Below are positions 3,925-19,870 of a stretch of DNA of 20,276 nucleotides, piece by piece. Position numbers and translations under genes: made by a program. The notes beneath the pieces are model-generated. The model was not told the DNA's origin. It did no database searches and saw only the letters and a program-made list of their open reading frames with translations. Within the stretch, counting starts at the first letter, position 1; each line of letters begins with the position of its first letter. Source of the DNA: a virus; UHGV virus genome UHGV-1757948, one strand, 5' to 3'.

Positions 3925-4578
3925 ATGAGACGTATAAGAATAGGAAACGACATCATTCTGCGCATAAGGCTTACACGCCGTGGCGGTGCAGAGAACCTCG
4001 AGGGAAAGAAAATAGGTCTTATGCTGCGCAACATTCTCGGCAGTGTGAGCCTTCTTGTAGTACAGTCAGGAGGGGAGCTGATAGCAGGATGGCAGGGCAC
4101 ACAGCAGCAGTGGACAGGTGCGTATACAGTGACACTCACAGAGGATTGGGGCGAGAACAACCGCAACACCGTGGATGAGGCATGCGCCTTCGAGCTTGTG
4201 TCAATAAGCAGCGACGAGGGTGTGGAGACCGGCACCGTGAACATCGAGCTTGACATGGACATCAGCGTGCCGGGCAACGGTCTGTCCGCCTATGAGATAG
4301 CCGTGCTGCACGGCTTTGAGGGCACAGAAGAAGAATGGCTGGAGAGTTTAAAGCCCGACACGAGTAATTTTGTGACAACCGAACAAGTAGCGGAAGACTA
4401 TCAGCCAAAGGGAGATTATGTTACAGAAGCACCTAAGGATGGGAAAAACTATGTACGGAAAGATGGAAGCTGGACTGAGTTTGCAGGAAGTGGAAAAGCT
4501 AATGCCTTTTTTTCGAATAATATCCTTAAATTTGAGAGCGGAGGAGCACAATTTAACAACAACATATTAATAATTTGA
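3925..4578 (+). CDS. Phage tail-fibre protein (BppU-like N-terminal motif; C-terminal YQPKGDY repeats)
   Basis: The start ATG at 3925 has an SD (aAAGGAGacagaccATG); the track's 3892 start lacks an RBS. It contains GNGLSAYEIAVLHGFEGTEEEWLESLK, the characteristic SAYEIAV-GF-GTE-EWL-SLKG motif of Gram-positive phage tail-fibre/baseplate proteins. A sharp GC drop at ~4340 occurs inside the gene. Confidence 0.7.
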   Translation: MRRIRIGNDIILRIRLTRRGGAENLEGKKIGLMLRNILGSVSLLVVQSGGELIAGWQGTQQQWTGAYTVTLTEDWGENNRNTVDEACAFELVSISSDEGVETGTVNIELDMDISVPGNGLSAYEIAVLHGFEGTEEEWLESLKPDTSNFVTTEQVAEDYQPKGDYVTEAPKDGKNYVRKDGSWTEFAGSGKANAFFSNNILKFESGGAQFNNNILII

Positions 4579-5315: not shown

Positions 5316-6001
5316 GCATATACAGACGCAGGCTTATGATAGCCAACACACTTAAAAAGAGTGACAGCAACATAAATTATCCTGGACTTATTGCAGCATG
5401 GTCGGCAGCAGGAAAGAGCAATGACGATGCTGATAGAAACGTGTTGCACGATTTGACGGGTAATGGGCTTGACATTACGCTGAACGGCTTTGCGTTCAAT
5501 ACAGAAGGAAGTGGCTATGGACATCCCGAATACCCCGATGCTCTTGTCTTTGACGGAGTGGATGATTACGGTATTAATGAGGAAATGCCGATATTGACTG
5601 ATTATACGGTTATTGTTAAGAGAGAAATATTTAGTGGCGGATTATATTCTCATGTAATCGGAAAACGTACAGGCTCTATACCGGGAGCTTTTTGGTTTGA
5701 AAGAGGTAAAGGAGATACTCATAGCTTTGGAATGGCTAATTCAATCAATATATTAAATGAAAGTATATCTTGGCAGTCCACGACAAGCTATAACGGGACA
5801 CCTATAGAAAAAGGTGAAGCTGAGGATATTCATGAATTAACGATAGGTGTAGCAAGCAAAACATATCCAGATTTTAGGGGTATGGCTTTCTACTCCGCCT
5901 ACCTCTTTGACCGCTCATTGGGTGAGCAGGAGATAAAGTCATTTATTAGAAAGTATATAGACGCAGACTATCTGTTACCGAGTGAACAAACAACAGAATA
6001 A
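5312..6001 (+). CDS. Putative receptor-binding protein with a concanavalin-A/LamG-like lectin fold
   Basis: The ATG overlaps the upstream stop (ATGA) and is preceded by GGAGG. The beta-rich composition and the pattern (LVFDGVDDYG...TVIVKRE...GAFWFERGKGDTHSFGM...TIGVASKTYPDFRGMAFYSAYLFDRSL) are typical of jelly-roll lectin domains at the distal end of tail fibres. This assignment is inferred from composition and pattern only. Confidence 0.45.
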   Translation: MSIYRRRLMIANTLKKSDSNINYPGLIAAWSAAGKSNDDADRNVLHDLTGNGLDITLNGFAFNTEGSGYGHPEYPDALVFDGVDDYGINEEMPILTDYTVIVKREIFSGGLYSHVIGKRTGSIPGAFWFERGKGDTHSFGMANSINILNESISWQSTTSYNGTPIEKGEAEDIHELTIGVASKTYPDFRGMAFYSAYLFDRSLGEQEIKSFIRKYIDADYLLPSEQTTE

Positions 6002-6006
6002 AGAAT

Positions 6007-6663
6007 ATGAGATTTATTATAGCAACAATAGCACAAGCAAAGGCGCACGGAATTGAGATTATATCGACAATGCGCCAATCAGTGGATAAGACACAAGTAG
6101 TGTTCCACGAAGAATATGTAAAGAACATTGACGAATTTAATGCCTTAAAGAGGTATGAATTTGATGATGCTGAATTTACAGACCTTATGGCAAGTGAAGC
6201 ATGGACACACGGAGAAGATTATGTGCAGCCAAATGAGGACTTTGCAAAGGTATTAGCCATGCAGATATTGACAGCAGACACAAAGGCGCAGATAAACACC
6301 ATGTCGCTGTCTAACAACGAGGCTCTGAAAGTTAAGGAGTTTTATCCCGAATGGAAAGAAGGAATTGACGTCAACAAAGGCGAAAAGTACAACTGTGACG
6401 ATGACCTTTGGGAAGCACTTACAACGCATAAGACGCAGGCGAATTGGCGTCCGTCTTTGGAAACCGCATCTATATGGAAACATATTGACGAGGAACATGA
6501 GGGCACAGAGGACGACCCGATACCATACGCACCGCCTATGGAGTTGTTCAACGGTAAATATTACACGCAAGACGAGGTAAAATACAGGTGTACCCGTGAC
6601 AGCGGAATACCTTTGTCACAGAACCTGAGTGAACTTGTGGGATTATATGTGGAACTTGTTTAA
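6007..6663 (+). CDS. Hypothetical protein (acidic, tail-fibre-associated; function unknown)
   Basis: A 218-aa ORF with coding-like composition, on the same strand and in the same AT-rich cassette as the preceding tail genes. Confidence 0.5.
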   Translation: MRFIIATIAQAKAHGIEIISTMRQSVDKTQVVFHEEYVKNIDEFNALKRYEFDDAEFTDLMASEAWTHGEDYVQPNEDFAKVLAMQILTADTKAQINTMSLSNNEALKVKEFYPEWKEGIDVNKGEKYNCDDDLWEALTTHKTQANWRPSLETASIWKHIDEEHEGTEDDPIPYAPPMELFNGKYYTQDEVKYRCTRDSGIPLSQNLSELVGLYVELV

Positions 6664-6680
6664 TTTAAAAACCAAAGACT

Positions 6681-6944
6681 ATGAAGGAAAAAGTTATCAG
6701 ATTCGTGACAAACAGATGGTTCGGCTTCGTGGCAGGACTGGTAATCGCAATGCTGTACATGTGGCAGGAACAGAGCCTCGGCAGCGTCAACGCGTGGATA
6801 ATGGGAATCATCACACCTATGCTCTTCGGAGCGTTCGCCGAGGTGGTGAGACATGTCACCACGGAGGACACGTACAAGTGGAAGAACCTGCTGTGGTGGC
6901 TCGCGGGAGCTGTCATTGGAGTAGTGGCGATGCTTGTGGTTTGA
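6681..6944 (+). CDS. Holin-like small membrane protein (3 predicted TM segments)
   Basis: An 87-aa protein with three hydrophobic stretches (WFGFVAGLVIAMLYMW; AWIMGIITPMLFGAFA; LLWWLAGAVIGVVAMLVV) and charged termini. It lies immediately upstream of a second small membrane protein and the amidase. Confidence 0.5.
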   Translation: MKEKVIRFVTNRWFGFVAGLVIAMLYMWQEQSLGSVNAWIMGIITPMLFGAFAEVVRHVTTEDTYKWKNLLWWLAGAVIGVVAMLVV

Positions 6945-6956
6945 TTCCCGGCATCC

Positions 6957-6983
6957 AGGGCAGGGACTCATATGCCCTGCCCT
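6957..6983 (+). promoter_or_regulatory. GC-rich hairpin (9-bp stem AGGGCAGGG/CCCTGCCCT, 9-nt loop) between the two holin-like genes
   Basis: The inverted repeat is seen directly in the sequence. There is no clean U-tract downstream, so it may be an attenuator or processing element rather than an intrinsic terminator. Confidence 0.3.
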
Positions 6984-7026
6984 ATCATTTGACTTGATGT
7001 ATGTACGAATAAAAAAACAAGGGAGA

Positions 7027-7260
7027 ATGAACAAGATTATAATGTGGTTTAAGACAAGCAACCGATGGAAGCATCTGCTTGGCGGTCTGATTATCGGTAT
7101 GGGAGCGGATGATATATACTGTGCGGCATACGCAGGCATAGGCGTTGCGGCAGCCCTTGAACTGAAAGACAGGCAATGGGGCGGCAAATGGGACTGGACA
7201 GACTTCGGGCTGACAACAGCCGGAACAGTTGTGGGACAATGCATAAGGATGATGATATGA
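7027..7260 (+). CDS. Small membrane protein (second holin/antiholin candidate)
   Basis: The start is placed at MNKIIMWFK, which has a partial SD (aAGGGAGaATG); the track ORF begins at 6934 but has no RBS. Two hydrophobic segments are present (LLGGLIIGMGA; IYCAAYAGIGVAAAL). The stop overlaps the next start (ATGA). Confidence 0.45.
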   Translation: MNKIIMWFKTSNRWKHLLGGLIIGMGADDIYCAAYAGIGVAAALELKDRQWGGKWDWTDFGLTTAGTVVGQCIRMMI

Positions 7261-7865
7261 ACGAGGTACAAAGCACATTGGAGGTCGCAAAAGGCATAAG
7301 CGACTATGGGATAATGATAGTCATCTGCGCGGTGTTCCTGCTGCTCGCCTCAGGTCTGATGATTGCGTGTTTCCGCTGGTTCAAATCAGCGATAAGCAAC
7401 ATAATATCCTACACTGACGAGCTGCGCGAGCTTAACGGAAAGCTGGAAAACAACAACCACGTCATGGTGACGATAGCGGAGGGACTGATGCCTGAGACAC
7501 AACTGCGGATAAAGAACATATCCGGAGCGTTCTTTGACCTTGCGGTGGAGAAAGTATGCAGACTCCTGAAGAAAATAAGGGAGGAGAACCATATAGCCGA
7601 CAAGGAAAGGACAAAGGCTAAGATACGCACCCTGCTGAGCAACATGTATGAGGACAGGAACAGCAAGTTCGACAATTTCCATTACCGTGGGAAAAAGCTC
7701 TCGGAGTACTGCAATCCGGAATGGACAGAATGGGTGGCGAAAGTAATAGAGGGAGAGCTGTACAATGAGAACGGTGCGAACAACGGAAGAGCCTACACCA
7801 ACGTCAGCGCAGTATATGACAATATAAAATTGGACTTTTATCACAGAATGACAGACCAGATATGA
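7257..7865 (+). CDS. Signal-anchored (single N-terminal TM) protein of the lysis cassette; function unknown
   Basis: The start ATG at 7257 overlaps the upstream stop (ATGA), whereas the track start at 7176 overlaps the previous gene by 85 nt. There is one TM segment (IMIVICAVFLLLASGLMIACF) followed by a soluble, charged, helical domain. Confidence 0.5.
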   Translation: MNEVQSTLEVAKGISDYGIMIVICAVFLLLASGLMIACFRWFKSAISNIISYTDELRELNGKLENNNHVMVTIAEGLMPETQLRIKNISGAFFDLAVEKVCRLLKKIREENHIADKERTKAKIRTLLSNMYEDRNSKFDNFHYRGKKLSEYCNPEWTEWVAKVIEGELYNENGANNGRAYTNVSAVYDNIKLDFYHRMTDQI

Positions 7866-7895
7866 CGATAAACGCATTTTACAACATTATAAATC

Positions 7896-8489
7896 ATGGA
7901 AAAGTTTAAAGTTATACTTGATGCGGGACACGGAAGGGACACCGCAGGGAAACGTTCGCCTGACGGACGCCTGCTCGAATACGCATACGCCCGTGAGATT
8001 GCAGTGCGTCTTGAAAGGGAACTCAAGGCACGTGGATATGACGCGCAGCGCATTGTGCCCGAGGAAAACGACATCTGCCTGAAAGAGCGGTGCGAAAGGG
8101 CAAACAGAATTTATGCCGCGACAGGAAAGAAAGCGATACTTGTCTCAATACACTGTAACGCGGCTGGTGCCGACGGCAAATGGCATGACGCCAGAGGATG
8201 GTCGGCTTATGTCTCGCGCAACGCTTCAAAGAAGAGCAAAGAGCTCGCCTGCCGTCTGATTGACGCGGCAGAGACACAAGGACTGAAAGTCCGAAGATAC
8301 TCACAGGATGAGCCATATTGGACACAGAATCTCGCAATATGCCGTGACACAAATTGTCCCGCAGTCCTGACTGAAAACCTTTTTCAGGACAACCGGGAGG
8401 ACGTGGACTATCTGCTGAGCGAGAAAGGCAAGCGAACCATTGTGGAGCTGCACGTGGAAGGCATCATGGCGTACTTGGGGAAAGTGTGA
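7896..8489 (+). CDS. N-acetylmuramoyl-L-alanine amidase (Amidase_3/CwlA-type endolysin)
   Basis: It carries the diagnostic Amidase_3 motifs: ILDAGHG.DTAGKRS, E..YA..IA, SIHCNAAG and LTENLFQDN.ED.DYL. It follows the holin-like genes. Confidence 0.85.
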   Translation: MEKFKVILDAGHGRDTAGKRSPDGRLLEYAYAREIAVRLERELKARGYDAQRIVPEENDICLKERCERANRIYAATGKKAILVSIHCNAAGADGKWHDARGWSAYVSRNASKKSKELACRLIDAAETQGLKVRRYSQDEPYWTQNLAICRDTNCPAVLTENLFQDNREDVDYLLSEKGKRTIVELHVEGIMAYLGKV

Positions 8490-8515
8490 GCTCGTTTCCA
8501 AAATGGAAATAACTG

Positions 8516-8544
8516 ACGACAGTTGCAAATTCCGCAACCGTCGT
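8516..8544 (+). terminator. Imperfect hairpin downstream of the amidase gene (possible terminator without a U-tract)
   Basis: ACGACAGTTGC-aaattcc-GCAACCGTCGT forms an 11-bp stem with one mismatch, ~25 nt after the amidase stop. No T-run follows, so the assignment is weak. Confidence 0.25.
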
Positions 8545-8647
8545 AAAGGCGTTCTTTGACATTGTGGGTTGCCGTTAAAAATACAATATTTTCGAAAAAT
8601 TATATACAATTATTTTGGGAAATTATATATCTTTGCACAATATAAGA

Positions 8648-8669
8648 AGCCCTTACGGCAATAAGGGCT
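8648..8669 (+). promoter_or_regulatory. Hairpin AGCCCTTA-cggcaa-TAAGGGCT immediately 5' of the ATG at 8673, inside an AT-rich 180-bp intergenic region
   Basis: A perfect 8-bp inverted repeat ends 3 nt before the start codon and would occlude the translation-initiation region. The surrounding region (8490-8672) is AT-rich and promoter-like (TATATACAAT, TATCTTTG). Confidence 0.3.
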
Positions 8670-8672
8670 GAA

Positions 8673-9302
8673 ATGACAGACGGTGTGCCCGTCTTAAATT
8701 TAAATTATATGGCAAAGATAAATAATAATTTTGAGAAACGAAAACGCATCACGAAAAATGAAGCGTTGGAACTGCTAAAAGATTGTTATGAGGACATCTT
8801 CAAGGCGTATTACGCAGGTCTGGAAAATTACAATGAAGAAATAAATATGACCATACCTGAAGCAAGGACAAGGCTTGTAGGTCCTTTGCTTAACGCAAAA
8901 ATAACAGAGAGTTTCATTCTCACATTTCCCGAGAACTGGAACAAAGGCAAATACGGAAGGATAATATTCAGATGGAACGGTGTGCTCATGCTCATCAAGA
9001 AATTGAACAAGAATGACAAGCCGTCTTACATTCCGACAATACTTTCAGATTCGATTGTCAACCAATACCAATTACCGCTTTTCCAAGGCGATGAAGGCAA
9101 GGAAGAGCCGATATTGATTTTCGGATATACAAAGGACGGTTTCGGGCAGCTCGTAAACCCGAGAATTGTCTTGTATGACGATGGGGTTCAATGGACTGCC
9201 TATATGGAAGACGGTGTAAATATGCCGACTGCCAATACAGACACGCAGGAGATTATTGTCCGCCTGAAAAAGAAAGAGACAGGAGAAAAGAAGGCAGAAT
9301 AA
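8673..9302 (+). CDS. Hypothetical protein (209 aa, low GC, no SD; alternative start at M13 = 8709); unknown partner of the HTH-ImmA regulator
   Basis: A long ORF with coding-like composition on the same strand as, and 52 nt upstream of, the HTH-ImmA gene. No recognisable motif was found. Confidence 0.5.
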   Translation: MTDGVPVLNLNYMAKINNNFEKRKRITKNEALELLKDCYEDIFKAYYAGLENYNEEINMTIPEARTRLVGPLLNAKITESFILTFPENWNKGKYGRIIFRWNGVLMLIKKLNKNDKPSYIPTILSDSIVNQYQLPLFQGDEGKEEPILIFGYTKDGFGQLVNPRIVLYDDGVQWTAYMEDGVNMPTANTDTQEIIVRLKKKETGEKKAE

Positions 9303-9354
9303 CAGCAGGGCACACCGTCTGTTTTCAACAAACGACCTATAAAAGCAACGTCTT

Positions 9355-10410
9355 ATGAAATGTGAGCAGCTAACATTCGCAAGGGAATACAGGGGATTTA
9401 CGCAAACCGCACTCGCGGCAAAAGTCAAAGGGCTATCGCAATCCAACCTGTCAAAATATGAAAAGGGGTTTGGCGGGCTGTCAGACAACATGCTTAGTTT
9501 GATTATGTCCACGCTTGATTTTCCGATGAAATTCCTTGACATGAATATTGTGAACAAGGTTGACAGCAAGCATTACAGGAAAAAGGCAACCATAACCGTA
9601 AAGACACGCAACGAGATAGACAGGACAATATCCCTGATTGCGTATTGTTTTGATTGGCTTAGTGAATTTGTCGAGATACCTGACTATTCATTTGGATACT
9701 ACGACATGGACAACGGCATAAGCCCGGAGGAACTTGCCGGGCACATAAGGAACAAATACAGGCTCGGCATGTCGCCTATATCCGATATTTGCAATTTCCT
9801 TGAGCGCAATGGGGTATTCATTTACATGTGGGACAGTCCTAACGACGAGTTTGACGGGGTATCCCTGATAACTGACGCAGGCAATCATCTTATCATTGTG
9901 AACAGGAACAGAAGCAACGACAGGGTAAGGTTTACGCTTGCACATGAGCTGGGACACATACTGATGCACGAGTGCCCAAGTTTCCCGGTATTCAGCATTA
10001 GAGACAAGGAGAAAGAGGCGAACGCTTTTGCATCAGAGTTCCTTCTCCCCTCCCAGGCTGTCAGAAACGCCTTGCACAATGTCAGGCTCGGACAGTTCCC
10101 TGAGCTGAAACGGTATTGGCTTGTTTCCATGGCATCACTTTTGGAAAAGGCAAAAAACATAAACGCCATTGCAAGTGAGAAGTACAAGTCTATGAGAATG
10201 GAGTTCAGCAGACGCCATTGGAATAAGAAAGAACCTTACGAAGTGCCTATTGACAGCCCTACCGTCTTTGAGCAGGCATATAGGCTGGTATCGGACACAT
10301 TGGGGTATTCAATCAGCATGATTTCGGAAAGCACAGGCTTGCCCGAGGATGTCTTGATAAAGATATTCGGCAAATCTGCGAGGATAATATCATTAAAGCC
10401 ACTAATATAA
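9355..10410 (+). CDS. XRE-family HTH fused to an ImmA/IrrE-family (COG2856) zinc metallopeptidase
   Basis: The N-terminus has an HTH_XRE signature (FTQTALAAKVKGLSQSNLSKYEKG). The central region has the HEXXH zinc motif in ImmA-like context (FTLAHELGHILMHE). Confidence 0.85.
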   Translation: MKCEQLTFAREYRGFTQTALAAKVKGLSQSNLSKYEKGFGGLSDNMLSLIMSTLDFPMKFLDMNIVNKVDSKHYRKKATITVKTRNEIDRTISLIAYCFDWLSEFVEIPDYSFGYYDMDNGISPEELAGHIRNKYRLGMSPISDICNFLERNGVFIYMWDSPNDEFDGVSLITDAGNHLIIVNRNRSNDRVRFTLAHELGHILMHECPSFPVFSIRDKEKEANAFASEFLLPSQAVRNALHNVRLGQFPELKRYWLVSMASLLEKAKNINAIASEKYKSMRMEFSRRHWNKKEPYEVPIDSPTVFEQAYRLVSDTLGYSISMISESTGLPEDVLIKIFGKSARIISLKPLI

Positions 10411-10436
10411 CAATTATCTATTTTGATACAACACAG

Positions 10437-10472
10437 GCGGTGACCCACATATCAAGGGTTGCCGCTTTTTGT
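10437..10472 (+). terminator. Rho-independent terminator after the HTH-ImmA gene
   Basis: GCGGTGACCC-acatatcaa-GGGTTGCCGC gives a 10-bp stem (two G·U pairs) followed by TTTTTGTTT. Confidence 0.5.
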
Positions 10473-10492
10473 TTAATAAAAAATGAAAGAAC

Positions 10493-11002
10493 ATGGGAAG
10501 ATTTAAAGGATTGCTTGTGGTAGTATCGGTGTTGTTGACCGCATCATTATGCGTCAACATACTCCAGTGCAGTAATGCCGGAAAGAAAACAACGAATCAG
10601 GACACAGTACGGACTACATATATAGACACCATTCCGTTCTTGAATCCTGTACCCAAAGACAGTACGGTGATACGGTATGTTACGGAGACGTTGCCCGTGA
10701 CTTGCCGCAAAGACACGATATACGAAGAGAAGGGCGGGAATACAGGCGACAGCGTCAAGGTGACACTGCCTATAACTTCCAAAGTCTATAAGGACAGTAC
10801 CTATACCGCATACGTGAGCGGATTCCGCGCGAATCTTGACAGTATATTTGTATATCCGAGACACGAGACTGTAACTGTCACAAGGTACAAGGAAAGTCCG
10901 CGCCTTGGCGTCGGTATTGCCGCAGGTTACGGTATAGGGAAAGACATGAAACCGACACCTTTCATAGGAATATCCGTATATTATAGGCTTTGGCAGTGGT
11001 AG
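10493..11002 (+). CDS. Secreted lipoprotein (signal peptide with lipobox LTASLC); candidate superinfection-exclusion or surface protein
   Basis: The N-terminus (MGRFKGLLVVVSVLLTASLC) fits a signal peptide plus L-[AS]-[GAS]-C lipobox. The mature part is Y/T/K-rich and beta-like. The overlapping antisense ORF 10547..11137 is Cys/Arg-rich junk. Confidence 0.55.
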   Translation: MGRFKGLLVVVSVLLTASLCVNILQCSNAGKKTTNQDTVRTTYIDTIPFLNPVPKDSTVIRYVTETLPVTCRKDTIYEEKGGNTGDSVKVTLPITSKVYKDSTYTAYVSGFRANLDSIFVYPRHETVTVTRYKESPRLGVGIAAGYGIGKDMKPTPFIGISVYYRLWQW

Positions 11003-11004
11003 TA

Positions 11005-11208
11005 TCAGCCATCTGGGAACAGTCTTTCGTAGAACTCTCCCTGCCGTCGCACCAAAGCTTCCCCATAGTCCAACCCGTAAACATCGGCATCGTGCCTTGC
11101 TATGCGTCGCACACGAGCCTGTGCCGAGCGCGGACAATGTATGGCAATCAGATGCTCTGCCTCGGCAAACAGACGGGCGGAGTATTCATCATTTGGCATC
11201 TGTGTCAT
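11005..11208 (-). CDS. Hypothetical protein (67 aa), last gene of the minus-strand operon
   Basis: A strong SD (aAAGGAGGaatctgATG) precedes the start at 11208. Its stop lies 2 nt from the stop of the convergent lipoprotein gene. Confidence 0.45.
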   Translation of the reverse strand: MTQMPNDEYSARLFAEAEHLIAIHCPRSAQARVRRIARHDADVYGLDYGEALVRRQGEFYERLFPDG

Positions 11209-11599
11209 CAGATTCCTCCTTTTCTGAGTTTATAGATACGAACAATCTCTCGTAGTCATCACAACTGATTTCAAAGCAGTTCTGACTTATTACTCCGTCA
11301 GAATCCCCGAAAACGTAAAACGGGGTATACGGACTGTATGTCTTCAGGACACCCACATCCTTTTTGTTGTCCTGCCTGTGTCTGATATAGAACCAGTAAT
11401 GAGGTCTTTTGTAACCGACACACCATAGCAGCATAAGGACAAACAACAAGAAGAAAAAACAGAAAAACCATTTCGGCAGGAAAACGTCAATCAGAAAGAA
11501 TGTAACCCATGCCGTTACCATTACGGCGAAAGCCTCAAAAGATGTCTTGTAATCAAAATTTTTCATTTTCATAATATGTTTAATATTTCTTATTCCCAT
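11189..11599 (-). CDS. Small membrane protein (2 TM); alternative start at MKMKNFD (11572)
   Basis: Two hydrophobic helices (AFAVMVTAWVTFFLIDVF; FFCFFFLLFVLMLLWCVGY) and an acidic C-terminus. The coding sequence is AT-rich and overlaps the neighbouring genes at both ends. Confidence 0.45.
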   Translation of the reverse strand: MGIRNIKHIMKMKNFDYKTSFEAFAVMVTAWVTFFLIDVFLPKWFFCFFFLLFVLMLLWCVGYKRPHYWFYIRHRQDNKKDVGVLKTYSPYTPFYVFGDSDGVISQNCFEISCDDYERLFVSINSEKEESDDTDAK

Positions 11600-12134
11600 G
11601 CTTAAATGGGCGGAGTCTGTTATAGCGCATCTTCTGCTCGACGTAGAAGTCGATGTCGATATCGTTTTGGTGGCAGAATAAGATAATGAGGGCTACAGTG
11701 AGATTGATTTTTTCGCAAAGGGCTTCCTTATATAAACAAAGTCCCTCACAAAGATGGTACATGACGACGGGGAATGGCTCATTAATGAATTTTGCGTCTG
11801 AAGCAAGAAACTCGTCAACGTAATGCAGGGATATTCCGCGCAGTGCAGCCAAGTCCAAACAGCGTATGATGATGTCGCTAAGTTCATCCTCAACCGAGTT
11901 TTTGACGTGTGTCTCAAATTCATACTTAAATACAACGTCGTCATCGGCGTATGTTCCAAGTAATGCTTTGAAAAGGTCAATGTCCGTGTGCCTGTCCTTG
12001 CGGTCTGCCTGTACAGCTTCAGATATCTCAGTAATGATAAGCATCAAATAAGTTTCGTCAGGCAGTTCTTCATCGTGCCATCCGTGCGTCTTTGCGGTCT
12101 CAAAAACTGCTTTTGATAATTTAGTCAAATCCAT
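11580..12134 (-). CDS. Hypothetical protein, tentatively MazG-like all-alpha NTP pyrophosphohydrolase
   Basis: It has MazG/dimeric-dUTPase-like acidic helix motifs (ITEISEAVQADRKD ... ELSDIIIRCLDLAALRGISL). The assignment is pattern-based only. Confidence 0.35.
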   Translation of the reverse strand: MDLTKLSKAVFETAKTHGWHDEELPDETYLMLIITEISEAVQADRKDRHTDIDLFKALLGTYADDDVVFKYEFETHVKNSVEDELSDIIIRCLDLAALRGISLHYVDEFLASDAKFINEPFPVVMYHLCEGLCLYKEALCEKINLTVALIILFCHQNDIDIDFYVEQKMRYNRLRPFKHGNKKY

Positions 12135-12187
12135 ACTACTTATATTTTATTTTTAGGCATTTAATGCTTAGTGTTAATATCTGTATA

Positions 12188-12934
12188 TCACTGCGACGCG
12201 CACTCGCTTTCAAGCTCGTTCCAATCCTCGTCGGTAATGTATTTGCGGCATTCAGGATTAAGCTTCAACGCCTCATAGCCGACACGGTTGAGGAAACGCT
12301 CGCTCGTCAGCTTCTTCTCTATGATACGGAAGGCGAGCATGGCGTTGGCGTCCTTGTTCAGGTCTATGGTTATCCCGTCCTCGGTCTTGCATATCATGTC
12401 CGCAGCCTGCTCAAAATGGTAGAGGGTGCGTGACAGCCGCGCAGGATTCATGTATTTGTCAAAATGAATGCCGGGCGCGGCTTCGTCAGCCGTCTTTATC
12501 TGCACATCGTAAAGATGTACCGCGTATGCCAGAAGATTGCGGGCGGTCTCGACATAGGACTTAAGCTCCGTTTCGGTCTGCCTGTACTTGTCGAGCAGCG
12601 ACTTTATGGAGAAGCGCAGGATGTCGACATGCGGCTGTATGTCCTCCTCCACTGTGTCAAGATAGTCATAGAAGAGCTGCGTGCGGTCTCCGAAGTTCTG
12701 GATGTGAAGCTTCTCGTAGGCGTAGTACGCCCTCTCCGCTTCCCTGATGTGACGCTTCAGAGTGAAACGGTAGTACGGTGTCTTCCGTACTCTCTCTATG
12801 GCGTCGAACATTGTCTTGCCCGCCACTGTGTTGGCGGCTCCTATAACAAGGTTGACGAGTGAGTTGAGACGCTCGAACACCTCCATCGCGCGCTGGCTGC
12901 TCACTGCCGTAGCCTGTCGTACGTATGCTGTCAT
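12188..12934 (-). CDS. Hypothetical protein (248 aa)
   Basis: A perfect SD (aAAGGAGGtcagcaATG) precedes the start at 12934. It is GC-rich (~55%). No recognisable domain was found. Confidence 0.55.
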   Translation of the reverse strand: MTAYVRQATAVSSQRAMEVFERLNSLVNLVIGAANTVAGKTMFDAIERVRKTPYYRFTLKRHIREAERAYYAYEKLHIQNFGDRTQLFYDYLDTVEEDIQPHVDILRFSIKSLLDKYRQTETELKSYVETARNLLAYAVHLYDVQIKTADEAAPGIHFDKYMNPARLSRTLYHFEQAADMICKTEDGITIDLNKDANAMLAFRIIEKKLTSERFLNRVGYEALKLNPECRKYITDEDWNELESECASQ

Positions 12935-13191
12935 TGCTGACCTCCTTTCTTCAAATCATTCAAAGCCTTGTCATTGCAGCTTTTACAAAACAATTTATTG
13001 AGAGTTCCTTTTAGCATGACTAAATAGACATCATCGTCATCCTTGAACTTGCGGTTGCAATTAAAACAAAGCCTTTGAACATAAAGCCCTATACTTTCTC
13101 TCGACTTGCGGAACTGCCAGAATTTCAAGAATGGCTTATCAACAGCGTTTAGTACCTCGTATTCACGTTTGGTGATTTTCACTACTTTCAT
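12931..13191 (-). CDS. Small zinc-ribbon protein (CxxC...CxxC)
   Basis: An SD (gAAAGGAGGtataaaATG) is present and the stop overlaps the downstream gene start. It has CFNC and CKSC pairs. Confidence 0.5.
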   Translation of the reverse strand: MKVVKITKREYEVLNAVDKPFLKFWQFRKSRESIGLYVQRLCFNCNRKFKDDDDVYLVMLKGTLNKLFCKSCNDKALNDLKKGGQQ

Positions 13192-13562
13192 TTTATACCT
13201 CCTTTCAGTAGCTCTGGGTTGTCGTGGATGTTGCCGATTATCGTTGCTTTATCGGTAGGAAGGAAGCCTAATCTTTCAATACCTCCGATAAAAGAGCATT
13301 CAGAATCACTATATTCCACATCCACAATATCTCCGTCTGGAAATTGAATAATATCCCCTTCGTAAATCTCCTTCCCCTTTTTATCATACAAGCCTGTGAA
13401 CTGGCTTACGGTGGAGGGGGCGATTTCTCGTTTCCACACGGCATTAGAGCTGTCGCTCTTTTCGAGAATGTTGCAGTCTCCGTCCGCCCATATTAAAAGC
13501 GAACCATAGCACCACTCATCGTTTGCAAGGCGTTTGCCTCTGAACTTGATTGCTCGTTTCAT
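13188..13562 (-). CDS. YopX-family phage protein
   Basis: MKRAIKFRGKR...WCYG...VSQFTGLYDKKGKEIYEGDII...IIGNIHDNPELL matches the YopX (SPbeta) family pattern. An SD (gAAAGGAGGtgcggtcATG) is present. Confidence 0.7.
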   Translation of the reverse strand: MKRAIKFRGKRLANDEWCYGSLLIWADGDCNILEKSDSSNAVWKREIAPSTVSQFTGLYDKKGKEIYEGDIIQFPDGDIVDVEYSDSECSFIGGIERLGFLPTDKATIIGNIHDNPELLKGGIK

Positions 13563-19687: not shown

Positions 19688-19870
19688 TCATTTGTTACGC
19701 AACTGTATGAAGCCGTCGGCTTCGTATTTTTTCAGTTCGGCAAGTCCGTCATCCGTAACGGTGACGATATTCTCTCCGTTTACCGTCATGCCTTCTACGA
19801 TGCCGAACCGCTGCCGGATATTGTCTATGATGCGGGCGTTCTCCGTCACCCAGTAGATTGTAATTCTCAT
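19688..19870 (-). CDS. Small hypothetical protein (60 aa; start at MRITIYW)
   Basis: The ATG at 19870 is preceded by AGGAGtcaatATG. The longer track ORF (start 19978) would overlap the methyltransferase gene and lacks an RBS. Confidence 0.4.
   Translation of the reverse strand: MRITIYWVTENARIIDNIRQRFGIVEGMTVNGENIVTVTDDGLAELKKYEADGFIQLRNK

Follow-up and report, generated by a model that had tools for sequence, protein, structure and literature searches.

The window analysed here, UHGV-1757948, is an entire metagenomic contig of 20,276 bp (ENA ERZ1310104 NODE_1063) from a tailed phage. Downstream of its endolysin gene lie two genes, encoding a protein of 197 amino acids (T197; 8709..9302, plus strand) and an RmrA-like protein of 351 amino acids (9355..10410, plus strand), and we consider it probable that the segment that holds them (8628-10474) is a self-contained and horizontally mobile two-gene operon of the RosmerTA type, a system of the type II toxin-antitoxin or abortive-infection kind, situated in an endolysin-downstream hotspot. 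RosmerTA systems consist of a Zn-peptidase antitoxin and a toxin whose function is unknown, and protect against phages (bioRxiv 10.1101/2022.05.11.491447). Comparisons between genomes make it highly likely that the two genes form a co-functional, mobile, RmrA-containing module (hereafter T-A). By analogy with the known systems, the module is rather likely to act as a toxin-antitoxin (TA) pair, and the chances that it defends against phages appear about evenly balanced, since this part of the reading follows from family resemblance. An earlier note on this DNA had described three open reading frames (ORFs) in this region and read them as one accessory island; all three ORFs are present, and its observations were partly confirmed and its interpretation partly right.

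The T197 and RmrA-like genes

In 59/59 loci that carry a T197 homologue, an RmrA-like gene follows downstream on the same strand, separated by a spacer of 38-73 nt. The 59 loci extend down to 38% identity, those retrieved with T197 span 100% to ~50% identity and many independent contexts, and the T197 and RmrA identity series are tightly correlated (Pearson r = 0.98). RmrA homologues at 46-47% identity, which were fetched independently, likewise lie downstream of a T197-family gene (hmmsearch E 1e-70 to 1e-78). The pair forms the adjacent, co-oriented two-gene unit expected of a RosmerTA system and, judged by these neighbourhoods, T197 is the obligate upstream partner of RmrA in all contexts examined.

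The RmrA-like protein combines an N-terminal XRE-type helix-turn-helix (HTH), a Peptidase_M78 (ImmA/IrrE) domain and a C-terminal extension. Pfam assigns HTH_3 and Peptidase_M78 to it, in line with its earlier description as an HTH-ImmA fusion. It is matched by 14 PADLOC RmrA models, most of them near full-length (best E 5e-59, residues 3-343), and so presents the HTH with M78/COG2856 and the RmrA profile matches by which a RosmerTA antitoxin is recognised. It also matches phrog_2439, a family annotated as transcriptional regulator, end to end (E 5e-75). The HExxH motif, HELGH at residue 197, is intact in all of the 59 partner genes, and hardly any variation between lineages is seen in the HTH recognition helix GLSQSNLSKYEKG. 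A sequence search of the PDB with RmrA identified no relative.

For the first gene, the earlier note had assumed a start at the ATG at 8673, giving 209 amino acids. However, all 52 aligned homologues start at the ATG equivalent to 8709, and relatives that are 96-97% identical carry ATT at 8673; the start is therefore placed at 8709, and the resulting T197 is a candidate RmrT-type toxin. The protein is predicted to be soluble and near-neutral (isoelectric point 6.5), with neither a transmembrane segment nor a signal peptide. It has zero matches in Pfam, PHROG, NCBIfam and PADLOC (RmrT models included; PADLOC at E <= 1), and 59 diverse members of its family yielded no consistent Pfam match and no PADLOC RmrT match at E <= 0.01. 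A word-indexed search of 5.8 billion proteins returned 124 clusters with the single sequence and 141 with a profile (clusters at 90% identity, E <= 0.01), and an exhaustive hidden Markov model (HMM) search of 1.84 billion representatives at 50% identity returned 115 family members. The few source names attached to these are Segatella copri, Bacteroides and Prevotella. On this sampling of sequences, T197 is a new, small, Bacteroidales-restricted protein family.

A search of the PDB with the T197 family profile returned nothing. Single-sequence AlphaFold2 (AF2) prediction of the 209-amino-acid ORF was useless (predicted local distance difference test score, pLDDT, 36.7), and a model based on a multiple sequence alignment was used instead (pLDDT 85.7, predicted template modelling score 0.79). 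In this model a helical bundle at the N-terminus precedes an alpha/beta core rich in beta structure, and the tail (residues 174-197) is disordered and Lys-rich. The conserved residues are R84, K97, K98, P105, T110, Q119, G139 and Y140; K97 is the sole invariant residue across the extended family, and zero acidic residues are conserved.

In the phage group to which the window belongs, the gene order is amidase, T, A and DUF6808, the last being the third gene of the region. A comparison of presence and absence among relatives, of the kind that the earlier note had suggested, revealed that the T-A pair is missing from a close relative, L020 (IMGVR_UViG_3300045988_126137), in which p229, the amidase and DUF6808 are 98%, 94% and 76% identical to their counterparts in the window and DUF6808 still lies beside the amidase. 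The view of the region as accessory is thus borne out for genes 1 and 2, and fails for gene 3. L020 is homologous to the window up to and including the upstream half of the module promoter, and again from within the terminator onward, leaving an indel of 1.8 kb between ~8650 and 10454. When L020 4740-5000 is set against window positions 8490-8650 and 10455-10492, the half-promoter is seen to be kept, with its -7 box degraded to TATATGCT, and the 3' half of the terminator is kept as well, where another 5' arm pairs with it. The survival of half the promoter suggests that the module was lost, and not absent from the outset; the junction resembles the scar of a deletion more than an empty site.

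The module also occurs, at 93-94% identity, in an unrelated temperate phage (L037 3382-7453; IMGVR_UViG_3300029604_000320), where it is flanked by a phrog_822 amidase on one side and a tyrosine integrase on the other. To judge from these sequences, phages have clearly exchanged the module here, at a lysin-proximal hotspot. In the several phage backbones that carry it, the pair most often comes directly behind the lysin. Elsewhere T-A follows GH108 lysins at prophage ends, beside bacterial genes, lies in an integrase island with DUF4365, or adjoins a HEPN gene, and Mrr_cat is also among its neighbours. In Segatella copri chromosomes (L006-L011) it stands between variable glycosyltransferase genes and ATPase_2 genes, and no phage gene was called within 8 kb on either side. 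In these chromosomal loci T-A is always followed by a convergent gene for a 384-amino-acid ATPase_2 protein and by a gene for a 432-amino-acid protein without assigned function, and the glycosyltransferase, sulfatase or transposase genes upstream vary by strain; the locus may be a variable or defence-island-like region.

Promoter, leader and a long-range helix around the T197 gene

The spacer in front of T197 (8490-8708) has a GC content of 36% and contains a promoter-like element, as the earlier note had recognised. The module promoter region (8573..8635, plus strand) comprises the blocks TTAAAAATACAA and TATATACAA, which are kept in phage, prophage and S. copri chromosomal copies (alignment A2), and the motif ATTATATATCTTTG(C). 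From A8620 to G8635 the motif shows no variation among 16 diverged upstream regions (alignment A5), and it holds across lineages with proteins that are only ~50% identical. Within it lies a Bacteroidetes-type -7 box, TATCTTTG (8628-8635, plus strand); the -7 consensus of Bacteroides promoters is TAnnTTTG. We considered the leader hairpins described below as the operator of the HTH and rejected them, since their stems differ by lineage and the recognition helix is invariant. The same comparison makes the invariant promoter motif the likelier HTH site, and it is probably the region to which RmrA binds. A 14/15 inverted copy of the motif (ATTATATATCTTTGC, 8622-8636) is found at 8712-8726, over T197 codons 2-6. 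This copy reaches significance in L040 and among close relatives, yet most other lineages have not conserved it; it was therefore dropped as a second conserved element, and is probably coincidental or lineage-specific.

The leader is ~75 nt long and forms two hairpins in every lineage. Hairpin 1 (8648..8669, plus strand), ~12 nt after the -7 box, has an 8-bp stem (AGCCCTTA/TAAGGGCT) and a 6-nt loop. The sequence of its stem differs by lineage, yet 95% of the alignment cells are paired, with changes on both sides at 7/8 pairs. Hairpin 2 (8678..8694, plus strand) has a stem of 5-6 bp and the loop TGTGC, and 76-78% of its cells are paired; compensatory changes were found at 3-5 of its five pairs, the full 5/5 coming from a second, model-fitted alignment that is biased towards structure. 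Neither the covariation score nor the paired percentage is attained by any of 500 shuffles, and in slid controls 32-48% of cells pair. The ATG at 8673, which the earlier note had taken to be sequestered by a hairpin, falls between the two hairpins and inside neither. A covariance model of the leader gives one match per module-bearing locus, directly 5' of T, also at loci outside the model, and zero matches in module-less loci. At the divergent locus L062, a weak match (4245-4346, E 0.008) lies 3' of RmrA, and the true leader is below threshold. Rfam has no match at gathering scores over the whole window, and none at E <= 1 in 8450-8760.

The leader also takes part in a second, long-range pairing. 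Its segment 8676-8690 (plus strand; ACAGACGGTGTGCCC), which spans the loop and 5' arm of hairpin 2, matches over all 15 nt, as an exact reverse complement, the segment 9308-9322 (plus strand; GGGCACACCGTCTGT). The latter starts 6 nt past the stop codon of T197, and 33 nt separate its end from the start of RmrA. With the extension of GAAA (8670-8673) to TTTC (9323-9326), the helix would total ~17-22 bp and enclose the whole T197 ORF. The same pairing is found in every lineage, each with a sequence of its own. Exact matches of 9-15 nt are reached by at most 1.5% of 200 shuffles in 20/25 distinct loci, and by none in 16, and duplex energies from RNAduplex range from -23 to -41 kcal/mol (z -3.5 to -7.6), including a locus in which T is only 38% identical. 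Across 19 distinct helix cores, 96% of 228 cells are paired, with 3-5 pair types per position, compared with 32-50% in shifted registers; anchoring each locus on its own best duplex makes the paired fraction too high, and the shuffle tests provide the fairer comparison. The non-Watson-Crick pairs in these cores are 14 G.U and 0 A.C. A U-rich tract follows the 3' arm in many, although not all, lineages.

Local hairpin 2 and the long-range helix are mutually competing structures, and a ribosome terminating on T would be expected to cover the 3' arm. It seems reasonable to suggest that the helix tunes the ratio of toxin to antitoxin output from a toxin-first operon. It might do so by offering a site for RNase III-type processing, which would part the two cistrons, by locking untranslated toxin mRNA in the manner of the hok fold-back element, or through conditional termination at the U-rich tract. 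In hok/sok systems, the toxin mRNA is folded back by pairing of its 5' and 3' ends (tac/fbi), and RNase III processes long-range stems such as those around rRNA. The module resembles these cases in that its 5' leader pairs just 3' of the toxin ORF, with compensatory changes, and resembles hok/sok in that this helix competes with a local leader hairpin. Unlike hok/sok, however, the module is bicistronic with a protein antitoxin (type II-like, not type I), no antisense RNA was found, and the 3' arm lies in the spacer between T and A instead of at the 3' end of the transcript. We found no description in the literature of such a leader and enclosing helix for RosmerTA.

Downstream of RmrA, an intrinsic terminator (10435..10474, plus strand) combines a stem of 12 bp, G.U pairs among them, with a loop of 9 nt and a U-tract (folding energy -20.8 kcal/mol, z -4.7, matched by 0/200 shuffles), and the S. 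copri copies likewise have a terminator-like hairpin 3' of RmrA. The earlier note had called this terminator the only clean one in the window and the end of a three-gene island. The structure is real, but it is not the sole clean one (another lies, for example, at 19705-19727), and it sits between genes 2 and 3 and is kept in the relative that lacks the module; it therefore does not close an island of three genes.

Proposed function and competing explanations

We propose a model in which T197 would be a growth-arresting effector in the role of RmrT, soluble and possibly targeting nucleic acids, and RmrA would keep it harmless by autorepression at the promoter motif, by direct neutralisation, or by both. 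The protease domain of RmrA would sense signals of infection or stress and bring about release of the toxin, which would then abort infection by a competing phage and so protect the host population of the carrier phage or prophage. The neighbouring features (prophage ends and HEPN, DUF4365 and Mrr_cat genes) point to a defence context only. For the earlier note's picture of a separately regulated, defence-type cassette after the lysin, this means that it holds for genes 1 and 2, as an RmrA-type regulator with an obligate partner, and does not extend to a three-gene island.

Several properties are shared with described RosmerTA systems. The module is a two-gene operon in which an HTH and M78 protein matching RmrA models full-length is joined to a small partner of unknown function; it is toxin-first, phage-carried and found on mobile elements. 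The toxins that pair with ImmA antitoxins of the RmrA type are many and unrelated (Ernits et al. 2023, PMC10440598), and 58% of RmrA-type pairs are toxin-first (PMC10440598). In Gordonia phage Kita, a validated RmrTA has a membrane-depolarising toxin of an orphan family and gives narrow anti-phage protection (PMC10440598); the RosmerTA of S. thermophilus is likewise of narrow specificity (PMC12322248). There are also differences, in that T197, a candidate toxin, matches no PADLOC RmrT model, and in that the module family is confined to Bacteroidales and carries a structured leader and a long-range helix.

A number of points count against the reading of the module as a RosmerTA-type defence operon. 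The toxicity of T197, its neutralisation by RmrA and phage defence are all inferred, and the role of the helix in expression is a conjecture. By the PADLOC models, T197 falls outside the described RmrT toxin families and, since PADLOC requires a match for both proteins, it would not call the module. The toxin of Kita is membrane-targeted, whereas T197 is soluble without a transmembrane segment. Fold searches with the T197 model gave no significant match, only sub-threshold hits, and the protein has no recognisable catalytic motif. The RmrA-like protein scores 110.8 bits (E 7.6e-32) against the spr1629 repressor/antitoxin family of NCBIfam (NF052239), for which the cut-off is 335 bits; it is thus not a member, and is related to that family in architecture only. 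HTH-M78 fusions elsewhere also act as plain regulators of mobile elements. Finally, the window phage may or may not be temperate; the window is the entire 20-kb contig. Given the shared architecture, RmrA, gene order and phage carriage, together with an unmodelled toxin, we file the module as RosmerTA-like.

The sub-threshold fold hits of T197 were mostly endonucleases, namely NaeI, EcoRV, HincII, Sau3AI-C, a tRNA-splicing endonuclease and phage PD-(D/E)XK proteins. A canonical PD-(D/E)XK nuclease is excluded, since the motif is missing and the fold similarity is not significant. That T197 has a nucleic-acid-directed, metal-independent activity is a guess, to which we give a minor though not negligible chance. 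About as tentative is a fuller picture in which T197 would represent a new, soluble and non-membrane class of RosmerTA-type effectors, with a fold that has no solved relative and perhaps a degenerate endonuclease-like core, and its operon would be governed by an undescribed enclosing-helix RNA mechanism (RNase III processing, a translational lock or conditional termination) that brings hok-like logic into a protein-antitoxin system.

In a related but rather unlikely scheme, RmrA would be no stoichiometric antitoxin but a fused repressor-protease, akin to ImmR/ImmA or CapH/CapP, that holds the operon silent, and a signal of damage or infection would trigger self-cleavage of its HTH and thereby transcription of T197, whether toxic or not. 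ImmR/ImmA (ICEBs1), DdrO/IrrE and CapH/CapP share with the module an XRE-type HTH and an M78 domain with HExxH, and probably a signal-dependent proteolytic control of a mobile-element or defence function. In line with this scheme, the M78 domain also matches PADLOC capP (E 5.6e-20), the invariance of both promoter motif and recognition helix argues for control at the DNA level, and an HTH-cleavage mode has been proposed for Rosmer-like antitoxins (PMC10440598). In the module, however, the two domains are fused in one 351-amino-acid protein with an extra C-terminal region, the regulator controls a single small protein in place of an integrase or a CBASS operon, and its gene lies downstream of the presumed target in the same operon, such that full repression would silence the repressor too. 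The finding that RosmerTA rmrA deletion mutants are untransformable (Millman et al. 2022, bioRxiv 10.1101/2022.05.11.491447) fits either model. The inducible-effector and TA models are in fact variants of one kind and do not exclude each other.

It is less probable again that the pair is a purely selfish addiction module that stabilises a phage, prophage or island and has no role in defence. Its patchy, mobile distribution over many types of element would suit such a function, and many type II TA systems have no demonstrated defence function. Yet the pair recurs by lysis genes at prophage ends and by HEPN, DUF4365 and Mrr_cat genes, those RosmerTA systems that have been tested do defend, and a non-integrated lytic phage would gain little from addiction.

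The repeats at 8676-8690 and 9308-9322 could in principle act as DNA, serving as sites at which recombination inverts the toxin gene in a phase-variable manner. Bacteroidales commonly contain invertible regions; here a discrete segment of 617 bp (8691-9307) is bounded by exact inverted repeats that covary from lineage to lineage, and concerted evolution of recombination sites would yield the same pattern. We nevertheless consider inversion very improbable. A strand-neutral DNA repeat should show both kinds of mismatch, whereas on the sense strand there are 14 G.U and 0 A.C pairs; T and A are co-oriented in 59/59 loci, and no recombinase travels with the module. That the mismatches are asymmetric and that T keeps one orientation speaks for pairing within the sense-strand RNA, and inversion is accordingly disfavoured as the cause of the repeat.

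A phage-intrinsic role, with the HTH-M78 protein as the phage's own lysogeny or induction switch and T197 as a lysis or structural accessory, would agree with the position beside the lysis cassette, with the known use of HTH-ImmA proteins as prophage regulators and with the annotation of phrog_2439, but is the most improbable explanation of all, as the pair is missing from a close relative that keeps its lysis genes, occurs in S. copri chromosomes with no phage gene called within 8 kb and is always a two-gene unit whatever the backbone, and as T197 has neither signal peptide nor transmembrane segment.

If the module is indeed a RosmerTA-type system, it would add to the poorly charted phage-defence and TA repertoire of Bacteroidales (Segatella/Prevotella, Bacteroides) and their phages. 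It escapes the PADLOC HMM set, which has no model for its toxin family; with a T197-family profile (alignments A1 and A4), annotation pipelines could call the module in gut metagenomes. Being polymorphic among near-identical phages, the module also offers natural plus/minus pairs for the study of phage-phage exclusion in the gut, and the covarying helix gives a mutationally testable handle on how toxin-first operons hold toxin below antitoxin.

The DUF6808 gene and the remainder of the window

The third gene (10493..11002, plus strand) encodes a protein of 169 amino acids and is a neighbour of the lysis cassette. Pfam assigns it to DUF6808 (E 3e-27). At its N-terminus the protein carries a membrane anchor, and its C-terminal Gly-zipper closes with aromatic residues; members of the family keep the hydrophobic N-terminal segment but not the cysteines, which makes a lipoprotein with a lipobox doubtful. 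DUF6808 occurs in at least 567 viral-contig stretches. We surveyed the best 80 loci (L067-L146; 2.5-kb flanks, same strand), and a lysin-type gene was found near DUF6808 in 50 of them, at a distance of at most ~650 nt in 49. The partner is an Amidase_3 protein in 13 loci, a phrog_894 endolysin with an intervening multi-transmembrane protein in 21, and a phrog_873 endolysin-like protein in 16. DUF6808 is placed immediately 5' of the amidase in phages that are more distant (L021-L026), and upstream of T-A in the loci L041-L049, which form a third lineage. In L020 it stays beside the amidase although T-A is missing. The supposed island therefore amounts to two genes inserted into a lysis cassette, which they split.

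On this distribution, DUF6808 is a core gene of the lysis cassette and outside the module, and we regard it as a candidate spanin-like lysis component of Bacteroidales phages. It is a core gene that travels with endolysins of three unrelated families, a pattern that fits a spanin-like lysis component and not a moron. The earlier note had taken this gene for an Ltp-like exclusion lipoprotein. The protein does resemble Ltp lipoproteins in being small and envelope-targeted, with an N-terminal hydrophobic segment; it differs in having no Ltp-type domain and an unlikely lipobox. We rejected this identity, since Pfam gives only DUF6808, the Cys positions are variable, and the gene stays next to the amidase where the module is lacking and neighbours three endolysin families in 50/80 loci. 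A literature search returned no paper mentioning DUF6808.

Beyond this region, tail and host-range genes occupy the plus strand up to ~6.6 kb. The Amidase_3 endolysin (7896-8489) has small membrane-protein ORFs directly upstream, and convergent minus-strand genes, among them MazG-like, YopX, PAPS-reductase and radical-SAM-like genes, run from 11005 on. Just 5' of the endolysin, 6934-7865 holds an ORF of 108 amino acids and one of 229 amino acids (phrog_19698, with a hydrophobic N-terminal segment), whose overlap at 7176-7260 leaves their real starts uncertain; relatives conserve both together with the amidase, and the two are likely to be holin-type partners in lysis. A megablast search with 6000-13000 against 50,697 GenBank phages gave zero matches, and near-identical and related contigs are present in IMG/VR and in ENA/Logan gut metagenomes.

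Low GC and the lack of Shine-Dalgarno (SD) sites, which the earlier note had taken as marks of a foreign island, do not set the region apart. The three ORFs have GC contents of 41, 45 and 47% against a window mean of 47%, several other genes are at 37-41%, and the profile ranges from 36 to 60% throughout. AGGAGG is found upstream of only 4/31 genes in the window and GGAGG upstream of one more, and the endolysin and most core genes are SD-less. As neither feature is distinctive, the foreign origin argued from them falls away. All four AGGAGG sites precede genes of the minus-strand block (11005-11208, 12188-12934, 12931-13191 and 13188-13562), and this block (11005-13562) may have a different origin or a different mode of translation. 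Lastly, a 29-nt hairpin (8516-8544; ACGACAGTTGCAAATTCCGCAACCGTCGT) begins 27 nt after the endolysin stop, with 10 pairs in the minimum free energy fold (-15.7 kcal/mol, z -2.3) and no clear U-tract; it is kept in L001, not in L020, and may mark the end of the late transcript.

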